Shown piece after piece: positions 50 to 33,348 of a stretch of DNA of 33,398 nucleotides. The DNA comes from a virus: UHGV virus genome UHGV-0115916; one strand, 5' to 3'. The position numbers were made by a program, and so were the translations under genes. The notes below the pieces were generated by a model. The model was not told where the DNA came from and ran no database searches. It saw only the letters and a list, made by a program, of their open reading frames with translations. Each line of letters opens with the position of its first letter. The stretch's first letter is position 1.

Positions 50-769
<720 letters not shown>

Positions 770-811
770 CTACCGTACAAATTGTGTACGGGTATTTATG
801 GAATTATAGTG

Positions 812-1055: not shown

Positions 1056-1796
1056 TCATTTATTTGATTCGAAGATATCGAAAATTGATGAATCATTGAT
1101 ATTTAAATTCTCAAACTCATTGTGTAAATCTTCTTTTAGCCTGATGATTTCACTAGAAAGGTCATAAGCTATAGATACATGTGGATTGTCAGTCAAATTC
1201 CATGTTAAATCCTCAAACTCTTTAACTTCATTGTCATTTATAGTAATACCCCAATAACCCATTATTATAGTTAGAAGGGTGATAAGTTCTGTTTGTTTAG
1301 AATTAATTTGTTCAAACTGCTTTAAGATTTTTGAAAAACTATCTTTATTATGAGGTTTAACACTCCATCCCAAAATTTTCAATTTACTATATTCGCTAAT
1401 CAAATCTCTATAGTTTTTTGAAGATAACCCTATTACACTATCAAAAGATTTAATAAGACCATGCATAACTTTAACTTGTGTAAAACGCACCGACTTTGTA
1501 TCGATTAAACAACATAACCATCTATTAAATGTATTTTCTAATATTGTAATTGTGAATTGCTTTTGTGTATTAGGTAAATGTGTAGATAAAATATTTGAAG
1601 AATGTTCAATAGCTAATTCTTGAGTAGCATCTCTTTTCCAGTTTTTAGCAATCAAAAAACCTTTATATGCAACAAAAGCCATAAAAATATTTGCTATTGA
1701 TGAAAGCCAGTCGGCAAGACTTCCAATATCAGAATGGGTTCCATATAAAATTAAAACTGATATAAAACCTAAAATCACATAAGGAATCTTTTTCAT
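1056..1796 (-). CDS. Signal-anchored membrane protein, paralogue of the 26826..27536 product
   Basis: 246 aa; N-terminal hydrophobic helix (ILGFISVLILYG), then DIGSLADWLSS motif and a second hydrophobic stretch, matching DLGSLADWISS in the 26826..27536 protein; C-terminal region diverged. Confidence 0.6.
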   Translation of the reverse strand: MKKIPYVILGFISVLILYGTHSDIGSLADWLSSIANIFMAFVAYKGFLIAKNWKRDATQELAIEHSSNILSTHLPNTQKQFTITILENTFNRWLCCLIDTKSVRFTQVKVMHGLIKSFDSVIGLSSKNYRDLISEYSKLKILGWSVKPHNKDSFSKILKQFEQINSKQTELITLLTIIMGYWGITINDNEVKEFEDLTWNLTDNPHVSIAYDLSSEIIRLKEDLHNEFENLNINDSSIFDIFESNK

Positions 1797-2470: not shown

Positions 2471-3973
<1,503 letters not shown>

Positions 3974-4006
3974 GAAAAGGGGCATTTTAAGCCCCTTTAT
4001 TTTTTT
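3974..4006 (+). terminator. Intrinsic terminator after the endolysin gene
   Basis: 8-bp stem AAAGGGGC (3976-3983) / GCCCCTTT (3991-3998), 7-nt loop, then ATTTTTTTC; overlaps the 3' end of the convergent ORF 3987..4262. Confidence 0.55.
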
Positions 4007-4262
4007 CAAGAATCGCTAATACGCGTTCTAATTTCACATCAACAATATGAATTTTAGAGCTTAGATCTTTAAGGCTACTCTCTAAATCATCTTGCCCTTT
4101 CTCCAGTCTCGCTACATCAGTTTTAACGTGTGTTAAATCTGATTCTAATTTAGCTAAACGAGAAGAAAGATCTTCTACATCGGCGGTTTTATCACGGAAT
4201 ATACTCCATAAAAAACCACCTGCGGCAATTACCACCGCTGCGATACTCTCCCATCCTGTCAT
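3987..4262 (-). CDS. Type-II membrane protein with coiled-coil domain (i-spanin-like or lysis accessory protein)
   Basis: 91 aa; N-terminal hydrophobic helix IAAVVIAAGGFLWSIF followed by heptad-like charged repeats (LAKLESDLTHVKTDVARLEKGQDDLESSLKDL); no o-spanin partner identified. Confidence 0.45.
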   Translation of the reverse strand: MTGWESIAAVVIAAGGFLWSIFRDKTADVEDLSSRLAKLESDLTHVKTDVARLEKGQDDLESSLKDLSSKIHIVDVKLERVLAILEKNKGA

Positions 4263-5434: not shown

Positions 5435-5487
5435 TTAAATATCTCCTAAAATAAAATGGGGAAGGTTAATCTCCTCCCCATTATTTA

Positions 5488-9178
<3,691 letters not shown>

Positions 9179-9802
9179 CTACTTCATTTTCCATTCTTGG
9201 TTTGCTTGGTTTACCTGTCCTAGTAAACTCATAAATTCATCTCCCGGATAATAAGACTGATAGACACTATTACTTGCAATAGTACGTGTCTGTACGTCTA
9301 ACTTCTGGAATATACTGTTTATATTTACTGTAAGTTCGGTTGTTTTATTATTGGGATCTGCTACTGCTTGGCAATAGTCAATATACCCGCTAAACATTAA
9401 CATTTGATAAATCGGTGTGGTTGTATAGGGATCAAGGATAACCATAATGATATTTACTTTAGCCTTGAATAGACCACCCGATAGAGCTAACATCTGTACA
9501 CTATTATCAATATTACTTACTTTGAAGTTGATAGAGTTATTGCTAATTCCCTTTTCTTCATTAAATGCTGGTAGTGAGTCCTGAATAATATCAGGGAATG
9601 ATTGATAGACTACGCTATTAAGTTCTAAGTTTTTAAATGCATCAGTCCAGTGAATACCATTTTGATTACGGGGGAATACATCAAAACACGTTACATGCTG
9701 CCCTAAACTCATTACTTCTTGAATGGTTAATTCTGTCCTATTACCACCTCTTGTAAGATTCCAGTACTTAAGTAGATTTGGATTAGTTAGTAAATCATCC
9801 AT
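9179..9802 (-). CDS. Minor tail protein (gpL position)
   Basis: 207 aa; gene order tape measure - minor tail proteins - J-like as in lambda-type tails. Confidence 0.5.
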   Translation of the reverse strand: MDDLLTNPNLLKYWNLTRGGNRTELTIQEVMSLGQHVTCFDVFPRNQNGIHWTDAFKNLELNSVVYQSFPDIIQDSLPAFNEEKGISNNSINFKVSNIDNSVQMLALSGGLFKAKVNIIMVILDPYTTTPIYQMLMFSGYIDYCQAVADPNNKTTELTVNINSIFQKLDVQTRTIASNSVYQSYYPGDEFMSLLGQVNQANQEWKMK

Positions 9803-9803
9803 A

Positions 9804-10355
9804 TTATAGATTCTCCGTTGCCTTTAGTTTTAGTGTTACTACATTCGTGATAGGCGTCTTATATTCGTTATCTGCATCTAATACGGCGGTAAGTTGAATA
9901 TTATTGTACTTAATGATTTCCCCTGCCTGTACGCTGGAACGTAGAGCCGGGAATACAGTAATAGAAGTATTAGTACGGTCGATAATGCGATAGATTTTAG
10001 TATGATTGGTGAATTGAACCATATCACCCACACCTAGTAACTGTGAGTTAGTTGTGATTTGGATTGATCCCGCTGCTACTGCGTTTGTACTGGATACTGC
10101 ACCAGTTTGTGTACCTGTGTATTTTGATAGGTGTCCTAAGTCCATAGGGAAAGGCTTACCTAGTGAATATGTAGAAATGAAATTATCCACTTGGCGACGG
10201 TCTTTAATGTTATATGTTAGTGTAAATTCAACTTCATAGTATTGAATACCCGTTGCACGTTGTAACTTTTGCCCCGTCCATGATTGGTGTTCATACATTG
10301 GCTGTACGCTATTTAAAGTAACACCAGATACTTTAATTGCATTTGTAAAATTCAT
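9804..10355 (-). CDS. Minor / distal tail protein (gpM position)
   Basis: 183 aa; first gene after the tape measure gene. Confidence 0.5.
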   Translation of the reverse strand: MNFTNAIKVSGVTLNSVQPMYEHQSWTGQKLQRATGIQYYEVEFTLTYNIKDRRQVDNFISTYSLGKPFPMDLGHLSKYTGTQTGAVSSTNAVAAGSIQITTNSQLLGVGDMVQFTNHTKIYRIIDRTNTSITVFPALRSSVQAGEIIKYNNIQLTAVLDADNEYKTPITNVVTLKLKATENL

Positions 10356-10393
10356 ATATATTTCCTCTTGGGTTGTATGATGTATTTATATAA

Positions 10394-10418
10394 GAAAAGG
10401 GGCATAACGCCCCCTTTC
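10394..10418 (-). terminator. Hairpin (attenuator-like) between the tape measure and distal tail genes
   Basis: 10-bp stem 10394-10403 / 10409-10418 with a 5-nt loop; the single A-C mismatch on the plus strand becomes a G-U pair in the minus-strand RNA; followed on the minus strand by a U/A-rich tract. Confidence 0.35.
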
Positions 10419-10420
10419 AA

Positions 10421-12604
10421 TTATGAGTTTCTTCTCTGAGAATCACGTACAGCCTGTACAACACTGTTTTGATATTTCTTTAGATTAGCCTGAAATTGTT
10501 TATCATCGCTCATGCCGTAGTTATACATAGGGGCATTTACGATAATATCGCCACCACCAGTACCGTTACCGTTGCTATCTTGATTATCTAAGAATTGAGT
10601 TAGTTTCTTATTAGCCTCTGGTTGTACTACACGTTCACCCGCTTTAAGTACAAATGACTTATCATTATAGCTTGCAGGAAGGTTATCTACGCCGCCGTGG
10701 AATTGACCGCTATTAGATGCACCTTTTGCTGTACTGATAATACTCATACCCATACCTGCAATCTGTGCATATGCCGCTAGGTTCTGTGGGAAACCTAAAG
10801 ATAGTGCACTTGCTAACGCCTCTTGAATCTTCATAATGGTCATAGAGATGGTAATACCCTTCTGTACTGCATAGAACGCCTGAGCCGCCCCGGATGACTC
10901 ACCAAAAGCCGCCGCCATACCATCACCGATCTGTGTCATTGCAGATTCAGAAGTAGATAGAATATTCATGTACTCTTGATTCTGAATCTGTAGTGCTTTA
11001 GTTGCGTACTGTGCTGTAATTGCCGCCTTACGCTTTTCAAAAGATTCTTTATCCTGAATTAGCAATTCATTCTGTTTTAGAATTGCATCTCTTTCTTCTT
11101 GCATACGTTCCATATCGTAAGAAGTGGTATCAAGTCCTAAAGATTGATCAAGTTGATTTCCTAAGTAATTAGACTGTTGTTTATTTAGATCACCGTTCGC
11201 AAGTAAAGCATTTTGATCTAGTGTCTGTTGGTTAGGGTTACTATAACCAATCATCTGATTGATCATATTAAGTCTACCCGCCGCCCCTGCTGTTAGTTGG
11301 TCGTTTAGTAATTCCTGTAGTTTTACATCAGATAAGCCTAATGTTTTTGCACTCTTCTTAATTACGTTTACGATTTCGTTTTGCTGGCGTTTGAATTCTG
11401 CTAACTGACGTTCATTAGTACCTTCAGTCTGATCTACAAGTACCTTATCTAATGCGGCCTGTGCTGCAATGCGTTGTTGTGCTGCTTTAGCCTGTTCGCT
11501 GGCTGCTGCTTTAGCCGCTGCCGCTGCTGCCTTAGCTGCTTTCTCTGCGGCCTTTTTAGGATCTTCTAATGGTGTCCATGCTGCGTTACCACGTGGGTTA
11601 GTTACTGTGGCTTTACCAGTTGGTAAATTACTATTCAGTACAGGCATGTTATTTTTATTCTTTTCGGCGTTAGCTTGATCAATTAATGCAAGTGCATCAT
11701 CACCTAAGCCAAAACCTAAGCCCATTGATTTTAGAAGTTTACTAAAGCTGGCTGCTCGGTTCATTTGAGTTTCCCAAAATCCCTTTGCTGTATCACCTTC
11801 TTTCATTGCTGCAATGAATTCATTAGTAGCAGATACAATAGGGTTTAATGTTTCAATCAAATATTCCTGGCCTGTATCCAGTAGAGTACGTAGATTATTA
11901 TCGAATTCTTCATAGGCTTTAGCTTGATCTTCACTAACTGCTACAGTTTGTTTTTTAATATTCGCCATTGCTTCAGAGTAACTATTAAATTCACTGAGTA
12001 CTCCAGTTAGACGGGAACCATTACTAGCTACTGCTTCCATTGCATAGGTTATTTCTGCTTGTGTTTTTCCTGCATCTCTCATTTTATAATAGAGATCTAC
12101 CATTGCTTCAATACCGCCATTGGCTTTACCTACATATTTTGTAAAGTCATTAACGTTTAAACCCATCTCTTTTACGACGGTAATAAACTCACCTGTACCC
12201 GCTGCGTACCCCTCACCCATTTTATCGGATGTATCTTGCGAAATATCCGCTAGACCTTCTGCATCTATACCAGTTTGTCTAAATGCCTTTTGTAGTTTCT
12301 GTAGGTCGGTTACTGATATACCAGATCGTGTAGAAAGTTGATTTAATTCACGTACTAACCCGTTAACCTTAAGTACAAGTGCACCTACTGCCGTTCCTGC
12401 ACCTAGTGCTACTGCGGAAATACCACCGATACCCGTTGAAAGTTTCCCGAATACTTGAGAAGTATTAGATGCAAAACCACCTAATGATCCCCCGGCTTTT
12501 TTACCGAATGCATCTACTCTTTGTTCTGCCTGTTGTAGTGCTTTAGATAGTCCTGTACTGTCACCATCTATTTCTACTTTAATTTTTTCGTTCTTCCTTG
12601 CCAT
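10421..12604 (-). CDS. Tail tape measure protein
   Basis: 727 aa, largely helical/Ala-Lys-Gln-rich with AAEKAAKAAAAAAKAAASEQAKAAQQRIAAQAA; immediately downstream of the G/GT chaperone genes; TAATG overlap with the upstream ORF. Confidence 0.8.
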   Translation of the reverse strand: MARKNEKIKVEIDGDSTGLSKALQQAEQRVDAFGKKAGGSLGGFASNTSQVFGKLSTGIGGISAVALGAGTAVGALVLKVNGLVRELNQLSTRSGISVTDLQKLQKAFRQTGIDAEGLADISQDTSDKMGEGYAAGTGEFITVVKEMGLNVNDFTKYVGKANGGIEAMVDLYYKMRDAGKTQAEITYAMEAVASNGSRLTGVLSEFNSYSEAMANIKKQTVAVSEDQAKAYEEFDNNLRTLLDTGQEYLIETLNPIVSATNEFIAAMKEGDTAKGFWETQMNRAASFSKLLKSMGLGFGLGDDALALIDQANAEKNKNNMPVLNSNLPTGKATVTNPRGNAAWTPLEDPKKAAEKAAKAAAAAAKAAASEQAKAAQQRIAAQAALDKVLVDQTEGTNERQLAEFKRQQNEIVNVIKKSAKTLGLSDVKLQELLNDQLTAGAAGRLNMINQMIGYSNPNQQTLDQNALLANGDLNKQQSNYLGNQLDQSLGLDTTSYDMERMQEERDAILKQNELLIQDKESFEKRKAAITAQYATKALQIQNQEYMNILSTSESAMTQIGDGMAAAFGESSGAAQAFYAVQKGITISMTIMKIQEALASALSLGFPQNLAAYAQIAGMGMSIISTAKGASNSGQFHGGVDNLPASYNDKSFVLKAGERVVQPEANKKLTQFLDNQDSNGNGTGGGDIIVNAPMYNYGMSDDKQFQANLKKYQNSVVQAVRDSQRRNS

Positions 12605-13300: not shown

Positions 13301-13335
13301 TTTATTATTGTAAAAAAATAGGGCGATAGAAAATA
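13301..13335 (-). terminator. Intrinsic terminator / attenuator after the major tail protein gene
   Basis: 10-bp stem 13310-13319 / 13326-13335 with a 6-nt loop; the one plus-strand mismatch is a G-U pair in the minus-strand RNA; followed on the minus strand by AUUUUUUUA. Confidence 0.55.
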
Positions 13336-13351
13336 CTATCACCCTTATTTA

Positions 13352-13810: not shown

Positions 13811-13876
13811 TTTTATATTTCCTTATATAAGTTTATTTCTAGTAGGGCAAGAATCCTTTCTTACCCTACGTTGTAT

Positions 13877-16800
13877 TTATTTATTCATTAGTTGTTGTAC
13901 TAATGCTTTTAGTTCATCAATTTGTGATTGTTGATAATCATTATCTTTCTTCAATGATTGAACCGATCCCATTAAATCCATAACAATTGGGTTAACATCG
14001 ATAGACGGTCTATCGCGTGTTAGTTGTTCTACTATGTTTCCTTCTTCATCAAGTACTTCATCATAGATTTCTGGATTGTGTTTCACATACTGAGGTGTGT
14101 TTATTTCTGACTCTTCGGCAATAATCCCAAAACGCTGGCGTTTTTGTTCATCATCTTTATAGACAAAATTAACCATTTTTTGAGATAAAATTCTTTCTAA
14201 CGCTTCGTCGGTTTTTGCTTCTACAATATCTTCTTTATAGTCTCTACCGGATGTACCTTGTAAAGCCAATGCACCACCACCTAGCGGTAGTGAGATCCAA
14301 TATTGTGGGCTTCCTGCTGCTGTGTAGGTCTGGAATCCGTAGTTGCCTACAGTTTCTGAAAAACCAGCACGGATACGTACAACACCATTTGATGCAAGAT
14401 TACATGTATAAGAGGCTGAACCGTTGGAACGTAGCATAATTGCATCAGTACCAGCACTTGAACCACCACACGTAACACGGTTGCTAGTTACATCGAATGT
14501 ACCAGCACATGTAGTATTACCTAATGCAGTAATAACACCGCCGAAATTCATGGTATTAGTAGTACGTGAATAGTTGAATAGAGCTACACCACCTGTATTA
14601 TCACGGTTTAAACGGAATGATCCACCATCTGCTACAAATAGATATGTACTATCTGAGGAATCCGATTCTACAAATGATAAACATGGGTTTGTACTGGTAA
14701 TAGTTAATGGGTTTGACGCTGCGTTAGAGAATTTAGCAGTACCATTATTAGTTACGTTGATACCCGGCGTTGTAATTAGACTACTGAAATAAGAGCCACC
14801 ATTACTAAAGGTCATTAAGCCCTGTCCAACGGTTGCGGAACCTTCACCAACATAGATACGTGCATCATAATCGTTTCCAGTACCGCTACTGTGAAAATCA
14901 ATAAATGATCCCGCCTTTGTTGTTGTACTGCCTAATTCAAAACCTACTGTACTTGTATTTAATGTACCAACCTGTAAGCCACCAGTTTTAATAGTTTGTG
15001 ACCCGTTCCATTGGTTACCACCATCTAGCGTTGGGATAGTTACACCCAATTGATCATTCGTTAGGTATTCTTTCCATGCAGTCCACCCCGCCGTACCAGC
15101 TAATACACGTCTCCATTTACGATTACTTGCGTAGGATGTATATTCTTGTACACAAGCCTGTGCGGTTCCTGCACCAGTTGGATATACGTATAAACCGCCA
15201 GCCTCGGCAATTGGGTATTTGTTAGCAGGGGTTGCACTTGCGTTTAGTGTTTGGTAATAGAATCCAGATTGAGCCGCACCCAATGTATCTAGGTTAACAC
15301 TAGCGGCTAGTGCCGTCTGACTACGGTACATTGCCTGTAAATTATTACGGGCTGCATCTACACTATTTGCACCAGTACCGCCCTCTGTAATTGCAAGTTT
15401 ATTCGTTAGTGTTAGTACACCATTGAAATGTAAACTTGCAGCCATAATATTCATTGAACCACTACCAGCCGCCGTAGTAGAACCGCCTGTAGATTGAATA
15501 CGAGAATCATAATCTACGGTACTACCGGAACTGTGAAAATCAATATAAGATGTACTAGCCGCTACTGTAGAGCCAATTTCAATACCGCCACCTGTGGAAG
15601 AATTAGCCGCAAATCTATTTTGATTGCCGTTAAATTGTTGGTTACCAGACCATGTATTTTCTGTACTTAATAGTGGGATTGTTGCACCAGAAGTACCAGT
15701 ATTAATTACTGCTGAAGTACCTAAGCCTAAGTTTGTACGTGCGTTAGCTACGTTAGTTAAATCAGATAGGTTACTTGCCTTAATAAGATACTTACCATCC
15801 ATTGCAGTACTTGTAACGATACCTAAGTTTACTTGTGCCTGTGCAACGGTACTAGCACCTGTGCCACCGTTCGCCACTGGTACGATATCGAAAGTACCCG
15901 CCGCTTTAACGCCTAAGTTTGTACGTGCTTCTGCTGCCGTCTTAGCACCAGTACCGCCATTTGCTACCGTTAGAGCTTGACCTAAAGTTAATGATCCTGC
16001 ACTTGCTACGCCTAAAGTAGAAGTAGTGGTTTTAATACTTTCACCAGTGATTGCACCAGTTGCCTCTACATCTGCACCCGTAATTTTATTTGCAGAAATT
16101 AAGCTATTGACTTTGACATTACCGGAAAATGTTTTATTCCCTGCAATAGTCTGATCACCAGTTAGAGCTACATACTTTGTATCACCTAGATTAGTTGTTA
16201 AAATACGTTGCCATGCGGTAGTCTGGTTTTTTGCATAGATTGCAAGTGAACCTGTTTTAGTCATTGCGATAGAACTAAAAGTAGTACCATCAATTAGACC
16301 TACACCCATCATATCAGCACTGGCTGGATTACCCACTTGTGACGCTGGGATCTTGATAAAGCTGTTACCTAGTGGGCGTTCTGGTTGATACTGTGGTACA
16401 TCACCACCATTACTACCTACACCATAGGAACCTTCTACTAATGCTGCACTTGCTAACGCCGTACCATCACGTGTAATAACGTCTGTAGGTACAAAAGAAT
16501 AGGTTTTCATTACTACGGTATCTTTATCACCAGATACGTTAGCTGATTGGATTTGACCATTAACCATTGAATAATTGATTAAACCATCTTCAATATTGTA
16601 GCGTAGTGTTAATTGAAATTCTTTTTGACTCTCGGTTGCAGCATCTAAGAAAGCATGTGTTTCATCATCTGGAATATAGTTAACAGTAATATCAATATTA
16701 TCTACGTTTTGTTCTGCTGCTAGTTTAGATGAGTACTCACTATCGTATGTTTCAAGTGTTTGTATCTCACTTTCGATTCCAAATGACGGCATCGCTGCCA

Positions 16801-16903
16801 ATTCGTTTATTTCTTCGTTGCCTGCATTATCGGGAATACGGTTAGCAGTATCATTATTATAGAATAACTTAAAGTTATTACCTGTAAAAATATCATTACT
16901 CAT
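13877..16903 (-). CDS. Tail fibre protein with N-terminal tail-tube-like domain and C-terminal intramolecular-chaperone-like domain
   Basis: 1008 aa; N-terminal ~150 aa aligns with the 152-aa major tail protein (DIFTG/DIFSG, VNYIPDDETH/VNYLPDNETH, GDKDTVVMK/GDKDAVVTK); repeated NGGTGA...NLG fibre repeats in the middle; C-terminus (GRDYKEDI ... RFGIIAEE ... IDELKALVQQL) resembles peptidase-S74-type autoprocessing chaperone domains. Confidence 0.7.
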   Translation of the reverse strand: MSNDIFTGNNFKLFYNNDTANRIPDNAGNEEINELAAMPSFGIESEIQTLETYDSEYSSKLAAEQNVDNIDITVNYIPDDETHAFLDAATESQKEFQLTLRYNIEDGLINYSMVNGQIQSANVSGDKDTVVMKTYSFVPTDVITRDGTALASAALVEGSYGVGSNGGDVPQYQPERPLGNSFIKIPASQVGNPASADMMGVGLIDGTTFSSIAMTKTGSLAIYAKNQTTAWQRILTTNLGDTKYVALTGDQTIAGNKTFSGNVKVNSLISANKITGADVEATGAITGESIKTTTSTLGVASAGSLTLGQALTVANGGTGAKTAAEARTNLGVKAAGTFDIVPVANGGTGASTVAQAQVNLGIVTSTAMDGKYLIKASNLSDLTNVANARTNLGLGTSAVINTGTSGATIPLLSTENTWSGNQQFNGNQNRFAANSSTGGGIEIGSTVAASTSYIDFHSSGSTVDYDSRIQSTGGSTTAAGSGSMNIMAASLHFNGVLTLTNKLAITEGGTGANSVDAARNNLQAMYRSQTALAASVNLDTLGAAQSGFYYQTLNASATPANKYPIAEAGGLYVYPTGAGTAQACVQEYTSYASNRKWRRVLAGTAGWTAWKEYLTNDQLGVTIPTLDGGNQWNGSQTIKTGGLQVGTLNTSTVGFELGSTTTKAGSFIDFHSSGTGNDYDARIYVGEGSATVGQGLMTFSNGGSYFSSLITTPGINVTNNGTAKFSNAASNPLTITSTNPCLSFVESDSSDSTYLFVADGGSFRLNRDNTGGVALFNYSRTTNTMNFGGVITALGNTTCAGTFDVTSNRVTCGGSSAGTDAIMLRSNGSASYTCNLASNGVVRIRAGFSETVGNYGFQTYTAAGSPQYWISLPLGGGALALQGTSGRDYKEDIVEAKTDEALERILSQKMVNFVYKDDEQKRQRFGIIAEESEINTPQYVKHNPEIYDEVLDEEGNIVEQLTRDRPSIDVNPIVMDLMGSVQSLKKDNDYQQSQIDELKALVQQLMNK

Positions 16904-16917
16904 TTCTCTATATTTCC

Positions 16918-17322
16918 TTATTGTTTTTGAGTTGCTACAATATTTATAGAGAATGATAAAGATTGATAACCAGTAGTCGGATCTGTAACTACTTCCCCAT
17001 TGTCGAATGCATATGATAATAGTGTTACTGCATTATCTTTAAATTCTTTAATTGTATTTGTTTTGAAATAATCCATAATTTCCCCGAAAATATCGGCGGG
17101 AAGTTTTACTGATGGTTCGGGTACTAACAGGAATTGAAAATCAAATGTTCCCGTTTGTCTTTGAGTACCGAAATTTGTTAGGTTATAACTCTGGTTTACA
17201 CTAACTAGAATGAATAGATCCTTACCTGCCTGAATATTCATAGCCTTTCGGATTGGTTGAATATTATTCAAACTCGTAATTATCGTGGTTTGTACGTCTT
17301 TTAACAGTGCCATAATTACCAC
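16918..17322 (-). CDS. Head-tail connector / neck protein (tail terminator or completion candidate)
   Basis: 134-aa ORF between the capsid and tail genes; function assigned by position only. Confidence 0.4.
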   Translation of the reverse strand: MVIMALLKDVQTTIITSLNNIQPIRKAMNIQAGKDLFILVSVNQSYNLTNFGTQRQTGTFDFQFLLVPEPSVKLPADIFGEIMDYFKTNTIKEFKDNAVTLLSYAFDNGEVVTDPTTGYQSLSFSINIVATQKQ

Positions 17323-23949: not shown

Positions 23950-24041
23950 CTAAAGTTAAAACTTCACTCACGATTTTAATTTTTGATTTGTAATAATATT
24001 TATATTATCATTGTATTATAAAGTAACAACAAGGACATGTA

Positions 24042-24980
24042 ATGAAACACATAATCCAAACCAGAAGTGTTTTTAAGGATATCGAAGACTCTTTATTTAG
24101 TGAGTTGCATTCAGCTAAGACAAGTATCAAAATCTGTGTTGCATGGATAAACTTTGAGCTTTTTGAAAATATATTATTATCTAAGGCTAAAGAAGGTGTT
24201 GAAGTTGAGATATTAGTTAATAATGATTATATCAATACAAAATTTCTTGATAAAATATCTGATAATATAAAACCATTAATTAATCTAATTAAAAACCCTA
24301 TTAGTAACCACTTAATGCATCATAAATTTTGTATCATTGATGATGAAGTTTTGATTACTGGCAGTTATAATTGGTCAAAAAGAGCACCATATCATTATGA
24401 AAATATAATAATCATCCGTAATGATTTCAATCTAATAATGCAATTTAAACATGAGTTTGCAGATTTAAAATACATGGGTGCAATGCCAAGTACAGAATTT
24501 AATGCATTTAAAGTAACCAAAAATCTCAATAGATTTGTTGTTGGCACATATAGTTCATCTGTGGGGATATATGAAACCGTCACATTGCAGTTATGGGAAA
24601 TTGATATTAACAACTTAACTTTTGAACGACATGGCGAAATGGATATCCCTTTCTTCAATTATTTATTAGATATTAATACTGATGATCATTATCTTATTGA
24701 TGAAAAAGAAAGGTACATCGATCTATATGATCAAGAGCGTAGACAGATGGAGACTATCCAAAGTCATTTTAGAAGATTAAATTGTTCAATTCATGCTTAT
24801 GGAACAGCAATAATAGCGAACGAGAGCGAATACCTTGAAGGTTATGAAGAGCCTATTCGTGTAATTCACTTCAATTGGATAGATATGCGATTAAGCAAAG
24901 TATTACCCTCTTCTTTGCCCGCAACTATGGAACTTGAAGGATTATGGCACGAAATATATGCTCCAAATGGATATATTTAA
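24042..24980 (+). CDS. Phospholipase-D-family (single HKD motif) nuclease with uncharacterised C-terminal domain
   Basis: 312 aa; exact H-x-K-x4-D-x6-G-S-x-N motif at aa 93-110 (HHKFCIIDDEVLITGSYN); AAGGA RBS 6 nt before the ATG; AT-rich gene. Confidence 0.8.
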   Translation: MKHIIQTRSVFKDIEDSLFSELHSAKTSIKICVAWINFELFENILLSKAKEGVEVEILVNNDYINTKFLDKISDNIKPLINLIKNPISNHLMHHKFCIIDDEVLITGSYNWSKRAPYHYENIIIIRNDFNLIMQFKHEFADLKYMGAMPSTEFNAFKVTKNLNRFVVGTYSSSVGIYETVTLQLWEIDINNLTFERHGEMDIPFFNYLLDINTDDHYLIDEKERYIDLYDQERRQMETIQSHFRRLNCSIHAYGTAIIANESEYLEGYEEPIRVIHFNWIDMRLSKVLPSSLPATMELEGLWHEIYAPNGYI

Positions 24981-25012
24981 ATAATATTCTATAATTAATG
25001 AGGAACGGTATT

Positions 25013-25372
25013 ATGTCTAATTATCCTATACCACTTAGCCTTGAATTTAATAGTCAAGATACTGCTAATATCATTTGTAGTTATCTAGAAAAAAATCATC
25101 AAGATTCTATTTTAAAAACCATATTAAATATAGATTTGTCTTTTATTGATTATCGTGCACAATCTTCTAATTACTTTATAATTAATGACGTTGAATATAT
25201 TGGAGATAATAATTATATTTTATATTATAAAATAAACTACTACATTTATAATCTCTGTAAAGATATGGATATTGATGATGACTACGAGACTTCGATAAAT
25301 TTTACATTGAATAATGGATTTTTAGTATTTGATATAATTGATTGTGAAAGAAATATATCAGATGAAATATAG
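25013..25372 (+). CDS. Hypothetical acidic small protein, partner of the PLD-family nuclease
   Basis: 120 aa from ATG 25013 (GAGGA RBS 8 nt upstream; the track start 24998 lacks an RBS); Asp/Glu-rich (DMDIDDDYE, DIIDCERNISDEI); 32 nt downstream of the nuclease gene. Confidence 0.5.
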   Translation: MSNYPIPLSLEFNSQDTANIICSYLEKNHQDSILKTILNIDLSFIDYRAQSSNYFIINDVEYIGDNNYILYYKINYYIYNLCKDMDIDDDYETSINFTLNNGFLVFDIIDCERNISDEI

Positions 25373-26825: not shown

Positions 26826-27536
26826 ATGCTTAATCTCACTAAATGTAATTTACTTTTGATCGGCACTGTAATAACTCTATTACTGATAGCTATTCTTGTA
26901 GGTATAAAAATACTATTCTCCGATTCTAATCCAGATCTAGGCAGCTTAGCAGATTGGATCAGTTCTGTATCCGCAATAGGGACTCTTGGTGTTGCCTGGT
27001 TAGCTTATAGTAAAGCTGATGACTACATTGACAAAAAAGCTTCGGAAAGAGGAATTGATATCCTTGTCAATATGGTAACTGAATCATTCGTTGCTTATTT
27101 CAACTCACTAAATGAAACTAATTTCCATGCTTCAAAACTTGAAAATAAAATGATATTGATTGGCTTGGTTGATGAAAAAGTAGATTGCAATATTGAACTA
27201 CAATCATTAAGAGAAAAAATCATAACTCTCTTCGAAAATAGTCATCAAATAGACAAAGATTTTATAAAAATGAAAATAATGAAAATATCAAAACCCAGTG
27301 ATATTTTCTACGATCCAGTAACTAGCGATGATACATTGCAAGCGTTAAAATTAGCATTTCATAAACTGAACACTGAAATTTGTGAGAATGAAAATCAATA
27401 CAACATTAATAATGATTTACTTAGCGAAAATATCAACTTTATTAAAAACACTACCGAAAAGTTAGCCCATGATATTCGCAAACAGTTCTTTACCTCGCCG
27501 AATACTTATAAAGATTATTTTGGAAATCTGTCTTAA
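26826..27536 (+). CDS. Signal-anchored membrane protein (paralogue of the 1056..1796 product)
   Basis: 236 aa; N-terminal helix LLLIGTVITLLLIAILVGIKILF, DLGSLADWISS motif, second hydrophobic stretch, then a ~170-aa soluble domain. Confidence 0.6.
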   Translation: MLNLTKCNLLLIGTVITLLLIAILVGIKILFSDSNPDLGSLADWISSVSAIGTLGVAWLAYSKADDYIDKKASERGIDILVNMVTESFVAYFNSLNETNFHASKLENKMILIGLVDEKVDCNIELQSLREKIITLFENSHQIDKDFIKMKIMKISKPSDIFYDPVTSDDTLQALKLAFHKLNTEICENENQYNINNDLLSENINFIKNTTEKLAHDIRKQFFTSPNTYKDYFGNLS

Positions 27537-27581
27537 ATTATACGCTATCAAATATTCCATCAACATAAACAAGGAAAGTAG

Positions 27582-28280
27582 ATGACTACTCTCACTAGAA
27601 CTTATAATTTACCAAATGAGCTAGTTGAACATTTTTCAAATAACATTGTCTATTTCGAAAAACTTTTGTCTAAGGATTTTTCTGACTTAAATGTTAATGT
27701 AGCACCAGAAGACATTAAGAAAATAGAAAAATCTTTCGAAGTATCACATAGAATACGTGATTTCGAAATCAATCTGTATTGGCAAAGACTGAACTTCCTT
27801 TGGGCCATTACAGCATTGCTATTTGCTGGATGGGGAACATTGATCTTTAAAATCATCGAATTCAATGGAGGGGAAGCACCTTATATTATATTTGCCGCCT
27901 TATCATTTCTCTCACTTATAGGTGGGATTGTAACTATATTCACAAGCTTTATCATTGAGGCAGGTAAGCATTGGCAAAAGGTTTGGGAGTTTCATGTTCA
28001 CGCTCTTGAACCTTTTGTATCAGGTCATTTATATGCAATTCAGTTTTCTTATAAAAATAAAAAAAAGGCATCTATAAGTAGAAGCGTAGAAACTTTCAAT
28101 TATGCTTTGCTGTTTCTTTGGGCATGTTCAGCAGTATTCGCCGCAATCATCCCTTCACAAATAGGGAACGGTCTTGCAGGCATTATCCAATTAGTTATTT
28201 CTCTTCTTATAGTTGGTGCTTTTGTTTATATACGCAACTCTGTTACTAAAAAGGAGTCTATTAAAATTCAGCTTGATTAA
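27582..28280 (+). CDS. Integral membrane protein with about four predicted helices
   Basis: 232 aa; ~70-aa soluble N-terminus, then hydrophobic segments (LNFLWAITALLFAGWGTLIF; YIIFAALSFLSLIGGIVTIFTSFII; ALLFLWACSAVFAAIIP; LAGIIQLVISLLIVGAFVYI); AAGGAAAG RBS; 45 nt downstream of the 26826..27536 gene. Confidence 0.6.
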   Translation: MTTLTRTYNLPNELVEHFSNNIVYFEKLLSKDFSDLNVNVAPEDIKKIEKSFEVSHRIRDFEINLYWQRLNFLWAITALLFAGWGTLIFKIIEFNGGEAPYIIFAALSFLSLIGGIVTIFTSFIIEAGKHWQKVWEFHVHALEPFVSGHLYAIQFSYKNKKKASISRSVETFNYALLFLWACSAVFAAIIPSQIGNGLAGIIQLVISLLIVGAFVYIRNSVTKKESIKIQLD

Positions 28281-29434: not shown

Positions 29435-29911
29435 TTATAGTGAATTTATGTATACCTTGATACTTCCTAAGCTAGTTCCATCCCTCATCATCTGGTGTAC
29501 TTTCTTTTTTTCGTGCTGTGTTAGCTGTCGTGCATCACCCTTTAGTGCATACTTGATCATTACGCCGTGATTGTATGCCTCTAATAGTTCGTGTGCGGCC
29601 TTTACTGCAATGTTTCTATAATTATATAGCATTGACTTGTTTAGCGGCTTCTCGTTCCATTTCATGCGATTCTGGCGGCGAGTATTCACGGTATGTTGTA
29701 CTTCCTCTATTCCAATCATAGGACACTCTAAAACCAGCTTTAGGATCTCTAACCTACTAACCTTAGTACGGCTAGTGGTTCCTTCAAACTCTTTAGTAAT
29801 GACTTCATCAATAATATCTATTGCTTCTGGTGTAAACTGATTCAAAAACTTATAACCTGATAAAACGTTGTGTAAGTCTGTATTGTCGTATAATTTCTTT
29901 TTTCCTGCCAT
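29435..29911 (-). CDS. Hypothetical protein, possible DNA-binding regulator
   Basis: Start reassigned to ATG 29911 (MAGKKKLYDN...) because the track start codon at 29974 lies inside the stem of a strong hairpin; basic protein with no confident motif. Confidence 0.45.
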   Translation of the reverse strand: MAGKKKLYDNTDLHNVLSGYKFLNQFTPEAIDIIDEVITKEFEGTTSRTKVSRLEILKLVLECPMIGIEEVQHTVNTRRQNRMKWNEKPLNKSMLYNYRNIAVKAAHELLEAYNHGVMIKYALKGDARQLTQHEKKKVHQMMRDGTSLGSIKVYINSL

Positions 29912-29948
29912 AATAAATACCTTTATAAAATGTGTTATGTTCCTTAAT

Positions 29949-29986
29949 GGCGTTATGGTGTTTTCTCCCACCATAACGCCTTTTTA
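29949..29986 (+). terminator. Strong hairpin (12-bp stem) with trailing T-run
   Basis: GGCGTTATGGTG (29949-29960), 8-nt loop, CACCATAACGCC (29969-29980), then TTTTTATT on the plus strand; lies between the homing endonuclease stop and the 29911 start. Confidence 0.45.
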
Positions 29987-30472
29987 TTAGTTGTCTTTTG
30001 CAACCTTTGTATATGTCTGTCTATGTGTACTTCTATTGTACTTTTCATTCATGAATAGCGTGATATTGATACATGACATTCCACCAGTGTATAACGCCTT
30101 TACTTCATCTTTTTGTACTGGTGTTAGACGTGGTTCATTTTGTTTCTTACGTACTGCCTTACATGAATTTTCACTATATGTAATCCACTGCAAATTAGAA
30201 ATATTGTTGTCTCGTTTATCACTATTGATATTATCTACAACTAATCTTTTATTTGTTTGGGGTTTACTTAGAAATGTTTCTGCTACGAGTCTGTGTGTCT
30301 CTATCGGATATGATTTAGATTTCCCATCCTCATAAACAGTTAAAGTAACTTTATAGTACCCATTACTTTTACTATAACTCTGTGTTAGATAATTACCCGT
30401 TTTAGTATTGCGTACTTCTCCGTTACTACTTACTTCATAATTTACATATTGTGTTTGTTTCCATAATGTCAT
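29987..30472 (-). CDS. HNH homing endonuclease-like protein (NUMOD4 + HNH_3-type)
   Basis: 161 aa; YEVSSNGEVRN...NGYY.V.L...GKSKSY.IHRLVAETFL (NUMOD4-like) followed by VVDNINSDKRDNNISNLQWITYSEN (HNH_3-like). Confidence 0.75.
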   Translation of the reverse strand: MTLWKQTQYVNYEVSSNGEVRNTKTGNYLTQSYSKSNGYYKVTLTVYEDGKSKSYPIETHRLVAETFLSKPQTNKRLVVDNINSDKRDNNISNLQWITYSENSCKAVRKKQNEPRLTPVQKDEVKALYTGGMSCINITLFMNEKYNRSTHRQTYTKVAKDN

Positions 30473-30550: not shown

Positions 30551-30772
30551 TTATTGATTTTCGATTAGTAGTTTGAAAGTTGGAAAATTCATCCTTTCAA
30601 ATAGTTCTGTATGTAGTTTACGTGTTGTGTGGTAATACTTCATATCTTTATAGAAATCAGAATGGATTACCGTATTACAGTACGTTTTACCATTTGGTTT
30701 AGATACATCTGCAATTAGTACATTGTCGGTATCGGTACGTACATTGTTAAAATGGAATTCGCCAAAGTTCAT
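30551..30772 (-). CDS. Hypothetical small protein (possible toxin-like partner of the RHH protein)
   Basis: 73 aa; start codon overlaps the stop of the upstream RHH gene (TAATG); no motif recognised. Confidence 0.45.
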   Translation of the reverse strand: MNFGEFHFNNVRTDTDNVLIADVSKPNGKTYCNTVIHSDFYKDMKYYHTTRKLHTELFERMNFPTFKLLIENQ

Positions 30773-30927
30773 TACTTCTTTCCTCCTAAGATTACTTGTT
30801 GATTGAGTAGATATTGTAAAGCGGTACTCATTGATTTTGCTTTCCCTTCATCAATGATACTTTGTAGTACATTGTGTTGATGTTCGTTTAGACGTGCTGA
30901 TACTTTGTATTCTTTATTTTCTTTCAT
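30772..30927 (-). CDS. Ribbon-helix-helix (Arc/CopG-like) DNA-binding protein (51 aa; not in the ORF track)
   Basis: Hand-translated MKENKEYKVSARLNEHQHNVLQSIIDEGKAKSMSTALQYLLNQQVILGGKK; beta-strand-like KVSARL followed by two helices; AAAGGAAAA RBS before ATG 30927. Confidence 0.5.
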   Translation of the reverse strand: MKENKEYKVSARLNEHQHNVLQSIIDEGKAKSMSTALQYLLNQQVILGGKK

Positions 30928-30974
30928 TGATTTTCCTTTTGTCTGCAAATCCTTAAAAATTTCATGTAAAAATC

Positions 30975-30994
30975 ACCCCGTAGGGATACGGGGT
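30975..30994 (-). terminator. Hairpin upstream of the RHH gene (possible terminator of upstream minus-strand transcription)
   Basis: 8-bp stem ACCCCGTA (30975-30982) / TACGGGGT (30987-30994) with GGGA loop; followed on the minus strand by a GAUUUUUA tract. Confidence 0.35.
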
Positions 30995-31125
30995 AATAAC
31001 AAAATCTAAGGAGGAGGGATTTTAATATTCACACTTATTTATGAGATGAGAGCGGTCGCCCCCTTCATATACTATTATTATATCACATTTTGCCCATTTC
31101 GTCCCAGAAATCGACAAAATCAATT

Positions 31126-31449: not shown

Positions 31450-33348
31450 CTAGATCTGGTCTATCCGATAACGCTCTATGAACTCTTTACGTGTTAAACC
31501 AGTCGATTCTAATGCAGTGGCTATATCCTTTGGAACTCGACCATTCAAGGCAATACTATATGTATTGCCTTCATACACAATGTCTACTCGATCATACTTT
31601 CCGGTATTAGGCCAGAATGAAGCCCCACTTATTTCACTATAACCAACCACTTCTAACATCTCATTAGCAGTATTGAACAGATCTAAATAACTTTGTTCAA
31701 TTTTATCAAGTTGTTCCACTGCTTTATTAAATAATGGCAGATTGCTAGTGGTAAGAAATCCTTCATCTCTGATACTTACATTATCAACAGAAGAAAATTC
31801 AACTTTAAACGCCCAATGTGGTTTTCTATCAGTTCCACCAAAAACTAACCATTCATCTTTAAAATGATACTTTATTTTTATCGTTATACACCCATCAGTT
31901 TTATCAACTATAACACTTTCAATAATAGAACTAATTACTTTCCTTATTTTATTTCTATCCGTATCCTGCATATTTGTAAAAACCGCCCACTGAATAAGAA
32001 TCATAAATTCATTTATATCGACTTCTAGAGATCCTTTACCTTTCAGTGAATATAAGCGTTCTTTTAACTTATCAACTTCCAGAACAGTCTTTTTACGTTC
32101 CATATCAAACGCATTTAGTTGAACTGCTAACGCACTAACATTAGGAGCAATTGCTATTGCTTGAGCCATGTTTGTTATGCGAGATTCCAGATCAGTTATC
32201 AACGTTTCTTTTCTACTGAGGTCTTCTTCTATCACAGTTGTGTCAATACCATCTTTTAGTCTCTTATTCATGTAACCGATCAGTAGTGAAATGATCGTAC
32301 AGTGTTCAACTAATTGTGCTGATATAGACCAGCCAGAACAGTTTTTTTGTAAGTGAACCCCATTAGTACAAATATAGCGAGCACTGCCATGATTCATGAA
32401 AGAATGCATAGTTCCTCCACACTTGCTACACCGTAACACCTGCAACCCTGATAACAATTTAATTTCTTCTACTTTGTCTTTCTTAGCCTTGAAGTTGTTT
32501 TGCTGCTTACGTTCAGCCAAGGTTAAATACTCTGCTTCATCTTTGCATAACCATGGATAGTAGTTATCAAGTTTGTAAGTAGCACCACCAGCATTGATAG
32601 TCCTTTCACCAATCAACGCCCGATTATCACGCATCTTTTTCAATACCTGATAATCCCATTCTTTACCCTTTAAACCATTAGGATATTTTTTATCGAGATG
32701 ACGCTTTACTGTATAGATGCCATTCCCATCTAAAAACATGTCTATAGCTTCGCGAGCGATACTCCAGTAAACGGGATGTTCTTTTACTGCTTCATATTGC
32801 GAACCTGAATCATCTATCCAAAATGGATGGCGACCAACTGACTTAATGTTTACTGGCAACCCTGCTTTATGACGTTCGACCAAGGCAACAACATTGCCTA
32901 TGGTCCTGTTAGATTTCGTTTCTGATTCTTCATTGCCACGGATAAACATCAGAATAGAAATCATCAGATCAGTAGGGTTTTGTCTGATGGATTCTCTGTT
33001 ATAGACCTTCCGATCCATTCCTGTGACAATCGTTAGCCCTAAACCAATCAATTCAAGGAATAAACGAAGTGCTTCATCCACCTGATCGCGTGATAGTCGG
33101 TCGAGGTTTTCACAGTAAAGCCAAGAGTCAGACGGTATAGCATTATTTTTTACGGCGTCTATGAAGTCACCCAACTTACCCGCCCTATTTTTTCCCCTGT
33201 AAGCACTCGTGCCAGGTTCCAAAATTTCAACCATTTCAAGCCCCGCTTCTTCAGCATAGGCTTTCGCTGCCGCTACCTGCCTGTTCTTGGTTGTTCCTTT
33301 TTCTTGGCGATCACTTGACCACCTGATATAGCTATAAAGTTGCGGCAT
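31450..33348 (-). CDS. Large serine recombinase (phage integrase)
   Basis: 632 aa; N-terminal resolvase-type catalytic domain (YIRWSSDRQ with the serine nucleophile; ...RLSRD...), recombinase domain, Cys-rich zinc-ribbon segment (CSKCGG...C...C) and long C-terminal coiled-coil-like region. Confidence 0.85.
   Translation of the reverse strand: MPQLYSYIRWSSDRQEKGTTKNRQVAAAKAYAEEAGLEMVEILEPGTSAYRGKNRAGKLGDFIDAVKNNAIPSDSWLYCENLDRLSRDQVDEALRLFLELIGLGLTIVTGMDRKVYNRESIRQNPTDLMISILMFIRGNEESETKSNRTIGNVVALVERHKAGLPVNIKSVGRHPFWIDDSGSQYEAVKEHPVYWSIAREAIDMFLDGNGIYTVKRHLDKKYPNGLKGKEWDYQVLKKMRDNRALIGERTINAGGATYKLDNYYPWLCKDEAEYLTLAERKQQNNFKAKKDKVEEIKLLSGLQVLRCSKCGGTMHSFMNHGSARYICTNGVHLQKNCSGWSISAQLVEHCTIISLLIGYMNKRLKDGIDTTVIEEDLSRKETLITDLESRITNMAQAIAIAPNVSALAVQLNAFDMERKKTVLEVDKLKERLYSLKGKGSLEVDINEFMILIQWAVFTNMQDTDRNKIRKVISSIIESVIVDKTDGCITIKIKYHFKDEWLVFGGTDRKPHWAFKVEFSSVDNVSIRDEGFLTTSNLPLFNKAVEQLDKIEQSYLDLFNTANEMLEVVGYSEISGASFWPNTGKYDRVDIVYEGNTYSIALNGRVPKDIATALESTGLTRKEFIERYRIDQI

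Follow-up and report, generated by a model that had tools for sequence, protein, structure and literature searches.

A conserved hairpin followed by a promoter-like motif between the tape measure and distal tail genes of a chromosomal virion-encoding element

The spacer between the tape measure protein (TMP) and distal tail protein (DTP) genes of UHGV virus genome UHGV-0115916 encodes an RNA hairpin that is real, exceeds chance expectation and is conserved, and is followed directly by the promoter-like octamer TATAAATA. The hairpin, at the end of the TMP gene, probably serves as a terminator or attenuator of the intrinsic type, with the adjacent TATAAATA presumed to restart transcription for the DTP and tail-tip genes through a factor that reads it. 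On comparative sequence grounds, the spacer is best read as a putative terminator-promoter junction rather than an attenuator inside one continuous operon.

The element and its tail genes

The window, here the whole 33,398-nt stretch of DNA analysed, is 36.8% GC with most genes on the minus strand. The plus-strand genes are a lysozyme gene and the cargo genes 24042..25372 and 26826..28280. The genes to which the text refers most often are as follows.

31450..33348: large serine recombinase, recognised in PHROG/Pfam scans
10421..12604, minus strand: TMP, 727 aa, matching phrog_13674 'tail length tape measure protein' (E = 2e-77)
9804..10355, minus strand: DTP, 183 aa, matching phrog_1302 (E = 2.8e-17), with a weak match to the Pfam DTP-pb9 B domain

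The recombinase is followed in map order by small genes without assigned function and two HNH genes, then by the cargo (a PLD-like nuclease and an 8xMP membrane protein), TerS, TerL, portal and a protease-capsid fusion. Next come a 1008-aa tail-tube-like/fibre fusion, the tail tube, chaperone, TMP, DTP, further tail proteins and a J-like fibre, and the map ends with the opposite-strand lysozyme, a GIY-YIG nuclease, a holin-like gene and a DNA methyltransferase. The matches to phrog_13674 and phrog_1302 are in accord with the tape measure/distal tail context given in the preliminary description of the hairpin. DTP is the first gene of the tail-tip block and is followed by a tail protein (9179..9802), DUF6950 (8783..9178) and the J-like fibre (5488..8790). 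A full head, tail and lysis gene set is present in the element. No replication module, repressor, Q-like antiterminator or sigma factor was recognised in the window by PHROG/Pfam scans of its 39 ORFs.

Two features of the gene content were noted separately. The N-terminus of the 1008-aa protein (13877..16903, minus strand) matches major tail (tube) profiles (phrog_158) and the rest matches tail fibre profiles, with a C-terminal Peptidase_S74 chaperone domain, an unusual tube-fibre fusion encoded directly upstream of an ordinary 152-aa tail tube gene. The opposite-strand cargo (24042..25372 and 26826..28280, plus strand), which includes PLD-like nuclease-domain and 8xMP-family membrane proteins, possibly serves defence or exclusion.

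Pseudocitrobacter faecalis DSM 27453 (NZ_QNRL01000002) has a near-identical element in its chromosome, with the DTP gene and its flanks at 99% identity; the source names of DTP homologs include E. coli, Enterobacter, Raoultella and Klebsiella. The E. coli relative shares ~75% nucleotide identity with the window and is integrated in yegD. Megablast of the region against cultured phages gave no match, and no close cultured relative was identified. The window is one of a family of ~30-kb, low-GC (37-38%) virion-encoding elements in Enterobacteriaceae chromosomes, in which cassettes of a putative terminator plus TATAAATA recur among the structural and lysis genes. Neither in it nor in the E. coli relative was a gp55-type late sigma detected or a replication module recognised.

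Structure and conservation of the hairpin

The hairpin and the nearest translation signal are located as follows.

10394..10418, minus strand: RNA hairpin GAAAGGGGGC-GUUAU-GCCCCUUUUC, 10 bp including G10414·U10398, with a 5-nt loop
10364..10367, minus strand: Shine-Dalgarno sequence GAGG of the DTP gene, 8 nt before the ATG and outside the hairpin

The minus-strand DNA of the hairpin reads, 5' to 3', GAAAGGGGGC GTTAT GCCCCTTTTC, with the 5' arm at 10418..10409, the loop at 10408..10404 and the 3' arm at 10403..10394. The stem starts 2 nt past the TAA stop codon of TMP (10423..10421) and ends 38 nt ahead of the ATG of DTP (10355). Nine Watson-Crick pairs and G10414·U10398 make up the ten pairs. 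The GC core GGGGGC/GCCCC(U) pairs 10414..10409 with 10403..10398, and the outer four pairs (10418..10415 with 10397..10394) are one G-C and three A-U, setting an A-tract against a U-tract. Seven pairs contain G or C (six G-C/C-G and the one G·U), and the stem has a predicted stability of -16 to -17 kcal/mol. RNAfold placed the hairpin in both the MFE and the centroid structure of the sense RNA (centroid -17.2 kcal/mol), confirming with the sequence itself the 10-bp stem and 5-nt loop first described. The earlier observation that one position pairs as G-U in the minus-strand RNA only was also correct, the plus strand having an A·C mismatch at the position of G10414·U10398 and folding only as an interrupted 4+5 bp version. 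The sense-strand bias claimed for the site agrees with a 34-nt scan, in which the minus strand gave -17.2 kcal/mol at the hairpin vs -13.6 kcal/mol for the plus strand.

Among the minus-strand 34-nt folds of the whole 33.4-kb window, the hairpin ranks fourth in stability. Sites at or below -17 kcal/mol number four on the real minus strand vs none in eight dinucleotide shuffles, and those at or below -15 kcal/mol number 11 vs a shuffle mean of 0.6. When the TMP-DTP spacer alone was shuffled, 5 of 1000 sequences folded as well as the real one. A scan of the whole window with Rfam 15 found no family at the gathering score, and a tRNA/tmRNA scan of the window found none. Sequestration of the DTP ribosome-binding site by the hairpin was dropped as a function since the Shine-Dalgarno sequence, which has AGG or GAGG at the same place in relatives, lies 27 nt past the stem; action on the plus strand was dropped since no plus-strand gene ends here.

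The top minus-strand hairpins of the window are intergenic and lie mostly right after stop codons, following the integrase, 1008-aa fibre, TMP, ORF 1056..1796, tail tube and J-like genes. The other top gene-end hairpins are likewise stabler on the sense strand. The hairpin at 13345..13320 (minus strand), after the tail tube gene, is a classic sense-biased terminator followed by T7. That at 13874..13841 (minus strand), after the fibre fusion gene, is sense-biased with 12 bp including one U·G and is without a T tail (score 0.98); AATAAATAC lies ahead of it and spans the stop codon of the fibre fusion gene. The stablest local hairpin of the window (29980..29947, minus strand), with a perfect stem of 12 bp and -23 kcal/mol, occupies the short interval between an HNH gene (29987..30472) and ORF 29435..29974, overlapping the start of the ORF.

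Conservation was evaluated with TMP-DTP junctions from IMG/VR relatives with DTP at 36-99% amino acid identity, which gave 20 distinct spacers including that of Escherichia phage DCP80; a metagenome-contig scan with the DTP alignment confirmed nothing. A hairpin is located 0-20 nt past the TMP stop codon in 19 of the 20 spacers and is lost in the remaining one (L015). Eight different 5-bp cores were found, GGGGC in 13 lineages and otherwise GGGGG, CCCGG, GAGGC, CCCGA, GCCAC, GTAAT and ATTCA. MAFFT with RNAalifold, applied to 18 spacers, misaligned the divergent stems and returned a meaningless 4-pair consensus, and was replaced by a count in Python in which pairs were registered outward from the loop. 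By this count the five inner pairs are 100% standard, vs a mean of 69% and a maximum of 91% when the 3' arms were shuffled among lineages (2000 shuffles), and each stem position shows 3-5 pair types. Eight lineages have sense-strand G·U pairs, and averaged over the lineages the sense hairpin is stabler than its antisense counterpart. The 99%-identical copy has two differences in the stem, one changing the G·U to G-C and the other removing a basal A-U pair.

The general frequency of short palindromes, and nothing else, speaks for a chance inverted repeat without function; this reading is refuted by the failure of any shuffled site to be as stable and by the retention of the hairpin with compensatory changes in 19 of 20 distinct relatives. 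That the repeat acts at the level of DNA is very improbable, whether as a palindrome bound by a protein, as a site of recombination or cruciform formation, or as a small mobile repeat. A similar palindrome, AAAGGGGC...GCCCCTTT, is present at 3976..3998 as such an element might predict, but this copy is a gene-end terminator between convergent genes. Furthermore, across relatives the pairing is conserved and the arm sequences are not, the G·U wobble favours the sense RNA over the opposite strand in many lineages, and the position is tied to the stop codon.

The U-rich tail and the promoter-like motif

The sequence following the GC core contains two overlapping features.

10388..10398, minus strand: U-rich tail UUUUCUUAUAU, counted from where the GC core ends
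10383..10390, minus strand: promoter-like motif TATAAATA, identical to the T4 late-promoter consensus and followed by C at 10382

The U/A-rich tract reported after the stem is present, reading UUAUAUAAAUA past the full stem and UUUUCUUAUAU past the GC core. The first five bases of UUUUCUUAUAU are the 3' end of the stem and the last three overlap TATAAATA. With a d'Aubenton-Carafa type score, the tail read from the GC core reached 4.05 (P = 0.006), vs an average of 1.1 for AT-rich random background tails, whose 95th percentile is 2.75. Six of the first 8 tail bases past the GC core are U. Past the full 10-bp stem the tail is only UUAUAUAA and scored 2.44. The label 'weak' had been attached to the proposed attenuator because the U-tract was counted only past the full 10-bp stem. 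Since the outer pairs are pairing of the A-tract with the U-tract and the tail from the GC core scores 4.05, the overall shape appears to be that of a canonical terminator with an interrupted U-run; the proposal of a terminator, attenuator or stability element is retained without the word 'weak'.

The site resembles intrinsic terminators in its GC-rich stem-loop, which falls within the ~5-15 bp stem and 3-8 nt loop of the class, in its 5-nt loop, U-rich 3' tail and upstream A-tract pairable with the U-tract, in its sense-oriented position just past a stop codon and in its better pairing on the sense strand. It differs in that the U-tract (UUUUCUUAUAU) is interrupted and runs into the conserved promoter-like motif. 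Only four U are consecutive, all pairable with the A-tract, and a consensus terminator scan made no minus-strand call at the site and a weak plus-strand call only. The U-runs of several relatives are far better than the interrupted one of the window. Most relatives have 6-8 consecutive T after the stem, T makes up 5-8 of the 8 bases past the core in every lineage except L007/L008 and DCP80, and the tail exceeds the background 95th percentile (2.75) in 15 of the 20 lineages. Taken together, the sequences suggest a Rho-independent-type terminator or attenuator of ordinary kind, at which transcripts would end with a 3' hairpin that also protects the upstream mRNA.

In L007/L008, L017, L023 and DCP80 the hairpin has a poor T tail. 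In DCP80 the TMP stop codon is followed by GGGGC-UUCG-GCCCC without a T-run or motif. For these lineages a pure stability hairpin appears to fit better because the T tail is poor. Extended to the window, this reading would make the hairpin only a stabiliser or processing barrier at an mRNA 3' end, with transcription running through and the hairpin blocking 3'-exonucleases after endonucleolytic cleavage and so setting the amounts of TMP vs tail-tip mRNA. It is judged rather unlikely, although the C(UUCG)G-type hairpin of DCP80 at the homologous position, the low T-tail scores of the lineages just named, the window hairpin 13874..13841 that is without a T tail (0.98) and the interrupted U-tract of the window itself all favour it. 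A T-rich tail above the 95th percentile, kept in 15 of 20 lineages with 6-8 consecutive T in several, is needless for pure stability, and the two functions are not exclusive, a terminator leaving the same protective 3' hairpin. Intercistronic stability hairpins of the C(UUCG)G type are common between T4 genes. The window hairpin is like these in its gene-end position and in the GGGGC-UUCG-GCCCC found at the homologous site of DCP80, and unlike them in having a GUUAU loop and a U-rich tail, and therefore has the anatomy of a terminator and not that of a bare stable tetraloop hairpin.

Besides the tail, the A/U-rich tract contains the conserved promoter-like TATAAATA(C), placed 3 nt past the stem and 27 nt ahead of the DTP ATG. 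ATAAATA, kept in 18 of 19 motif-bearing TMP-DTP spacers, is located 20-35 nt upstream of the start codon; T, C or A precedes it, and C usually follows. TATAAATA(C) is the only spacer element surviving where all else has diverged, and the most conserved non-coding one. Alignment of the spacers on the motif revealed no conserved -35 element, and upstream of the motif (PWM, 8 positions) only the T-rich terminator tail was found, with no conserved motif and the hairpin further upstream. Thus, of the attenuator previously proposed between the TMP and tail genes, the terminator part is supported, whereas a lone attenuator in a continuous operon is replaced by the putative terminator-promoter junction. 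In the ~130-nt spacers of L016 and L018 an extra hairpin of ~20 pairs around a small internal loop lies between the TMP stop codon and the terminator, and a second hairpin pairs the 3' part of the motif with the DTP Shine-Dalgarno region.

Elsewhere in the window, (T/C/A)ATAAATA lies 25-37 nt upstream of 7 of the 39 gene starts, those of terS, the 1008-aa gene, DTP, ORF 3987..4262, GIY-YIG, lysozyme and methyltransferase. Shuffled upstream regions gave a mean of 0.88 genes with the motif, and 0 of 5000 shuffles reached 7. Exact TATAAATA is not enriched in the whole window (4 found vs 7.4 expected), and the argument therefore rests on position and conservation. A variant, GATAAATA, follows the integrase terminator and its T-run in the window. 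The methyltransferase gene is preceded by CATAAATAC, with a small hairpin (798..765) between motif and ATG. The spacer 3484..3522, between the divergent lysozyme (3521..3973, plus strand) and GIY-YIG (3046..3483, minus strand) genes, has CATATAAATACC on the plus strand and CCATAAATAATCC on the minus strand, each ~30 nt before its own gene.

The lysozyme leaders are an independent test of the motif. The lysozyme gene is head-to-head with its opposite-strand neighbour in the window and most relatives, and therefore needs its own promoter. ATAAATA was found in 43 of 43 distinct lysozyme-gene leaders from relatives at 50-96% amino acid identity (loci L042-L092), 20-36 nt ahead of the ATG. In many of these leaders the motif is the 5' arm of a hairpin sequestering the Shine-Dalgarno sequence, and in L086-L092 a terminator hairpin and T-run precede the motif.

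From its position and conservation, we infer that the motif is a promoter. A sigma70 promoter scan called no -35/-10 pair on the minus strand of the spacer. In our own reading a sigma70 promoter fits the spacer poorly: with the first base free and no conserved -35, no register of the invariant bases supplies both A at -11 and T at -7. The MotA box of T4 middle promoters was rejected as well, with 3 matches vs 1.2 expected and none upstream of a correctly oriented gene. A perfect extended -10 sigma70-type promoter, TGTGATATAAT, is present at 31087..31077 (minus strand) upstream of a 51-aa ORF (30927..30772, minus strand) whose product has the look of a small DNA-binding (ribbon-helix-helix-like) protein; it may be the element's own early or regulatory promoter, and a stable hairpin (31004..30971) lies between it and the ORF.

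In lambdoid late operons, RNA polymerase modified by Q passes through internal terminators. The window is comparable in having a terminator-like hairpin inside a virion gene block that needs full expression, and differs in that no Q-like antiterminator was found in it and a promoter-like motif follows the hairpin. The conservation of this motif after the hairpin suggests re-initiation and not antitermination.

A late promoter of T4 is the 8-bp TATAAATA at -10, lacks a -35 element and is recognised by gp55 together with gp33 and the gp45 clamp (PMC2988020, PMC3014915). The consensus is perfect at 32 of 50 T4 late sites, and the commonest variant, in 9 of 50, has A at the first position, -13 (PMC2988020). 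In T4 gene e the late promoters lie within the 5' strand of a structure that sequesters the ribosome-binding site, with the result that only late-initiated transcripts are translated (PMC3014915). The window is like T4, in which late promoters tend to stand right before late genes such as gene e, in having the exact TATAAATA octamer at 10390..10383 without a conserved -35, and its family in having an invariant ATAAATA with a variable first base 20-37 nt before gene starts. The lysozyme leaders of the family resemble gene e in placing the motif in the 5' arm of a Shine-Dalgarno-sequestering hairpin, and the homologous module of DCP80 carries cassettes of hairpin, T-run and TATAAATA. Unlike T4, the window is a ~30-kb integrated siphovirus-like Enterobacteriaceae element with a serine recombinase and no detectable gp55, gp33 or gp45. 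Searches by tblastn with the DCP80 sequences revealed no homolog of these three proteins in the window or the E. coli relative, with nothing below E = 0.02; the same held for RpbA in both. PHROG/Pfam scans of the 39 window ORFs gave no match of the gp55, gp33 or gp45 kind, and the small upstream genes of the E. coli relative had no PHROG annotation. A T4-type promoter in the strict sense is accompanied in the same genome by a gp55-type sigma with gp33 and gp45, a set not found here, and strict membership is not claimed because no homolog of the three was detected. Any factor reading the motif would need to be supplied by a co-infecting phage, unless it is a protein that escaped recognition.

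Recurrence of the terminator-plus-motif cassette in the TMP-DTP spacer, in the L086-L092 lysozyme leaders and after the integrase gene is also what would be expected if the hairpin were a full-strength terminator serving mainly as an insulator in the integrated silent state, stopping stray host-driven or upstream transcription and having little role in late transcription. The lysozyme-leader hairpins that sequester the Shine-Dalgarno sequence with a 5' arm overlapping the motif add to this, following the logic by which T4 gene e silences read-through (PMC3014915). Such a role is considered improbable as the main one; it differs from the terminator-promoter reading in emphasis, namely in when the terminator matters, and not in mechanism, and sequence alone cannot separate the two.

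Predicted transcription units and possible helper dependence

In the mechanism proposed for the terminator-promoter junction, the inverted repeat would be transcribed in the minus-strand (sense) late mRNA and fold as a terminator stem-loop. Part of the RNA polymerase arriving from the tail-tube, chaperone and TMP genes would be released after pausing on the U-tract; the interruption of this tract makes release probably incomplete. A transcript so released would retain the 3' hairpin as a shield against 3'-exonucleases. TATAAATA(C), most likely a -10-only promoter of T4-late type, would restart transcription for the tail-tip genes. By this arrangement the compact terminator-promoter cassette would uncouple expression of DTP and the tail-tip genes from upstream read-through, and the tail-tip genes would be silent unless a factor reading the motif were present.

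The minus-strand units predicted from these assignments begin with the motif at 23997, which would serve the packaging and head genes, and the motif at 16941, which would serve the fibre fusion gene. The tail tube gene would be followed by the strong terminator 13345..13320, with read-through into the chaperone and TMP genes as far as the 10418..10394 hairpin. The motif at 10383 would start a unit running from DTP through the J-like gene and ending at the terminator 5482..5455.

Among cultured phages, Escherichia phage DCP80 (PQ671644.1), filed under Tevenvirinae (Gaprivervirus), gave the best match to TMP as well as to the capsid protein. Its record is scrambled, with three copies of rIIA and duplicated exonuclease, primase, ndd and spackle genes. 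The first ~25 kb is a siphovirus-like virion module homologous to the window, in which four cassettes of GGGnCC-TTCG-GGnCCC, T-run and TATAAATA precede genes. The record looks mis-assembled, being either an assembly chimera or the result of DNA of a related element in a T-even lysate. No relevant account of DCP80, or of satellites using T4 late promoters, was found in the literature searched.

It is conceivable, and offered tentatively, that the elements are helper-dependent, their late genes, DTP among them, being activated when a T4-like or other gp55-encoding lytic phage infects and brings in its late-transcription machinery, and otherwise silenced by the gene-end terminators. Hints in this direction are the scrambled T-even record of DCP80, whose homologous 25-kb module repeats these cassettes, the T4 gene e-like layout of the lysozyme leaders, and the methyltransferase gene of the window (50..763, minus strand), which shares 68-70% nucleotide identity with that of RB49-type (Krischvirus) T-even phages. 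Reading of the motif by an unrecognised element-encoded factor is equally plausible.

Taken alone, the hairpin is a commonplace terminator or stability element at a gene end, of use chiefly in drawing transcription units correctly. The unusual part is a conserved cassette of terminator plus T4-type promoter, as predicted, in a chromosomal element without detectable gp55; no paper describing such cassettes in elements of this kind was found in the literature searched. The cassette suggests that the tail genes are not one continuous operon, and the late genes bear a T4-type promoter signature with no matching sigma factor detected in the element. If the elements are helper-dependent, they would combine a satellite-like lifestyle with a full virion gene set. 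Reading of the motif by an unknown factor encoded in the element would point to a new late-transcription regulator; if the machinery of a co-infecting phage reads it, the elements would form a new class of mobile elements in Enterobacteriaceae that depend on a phage.
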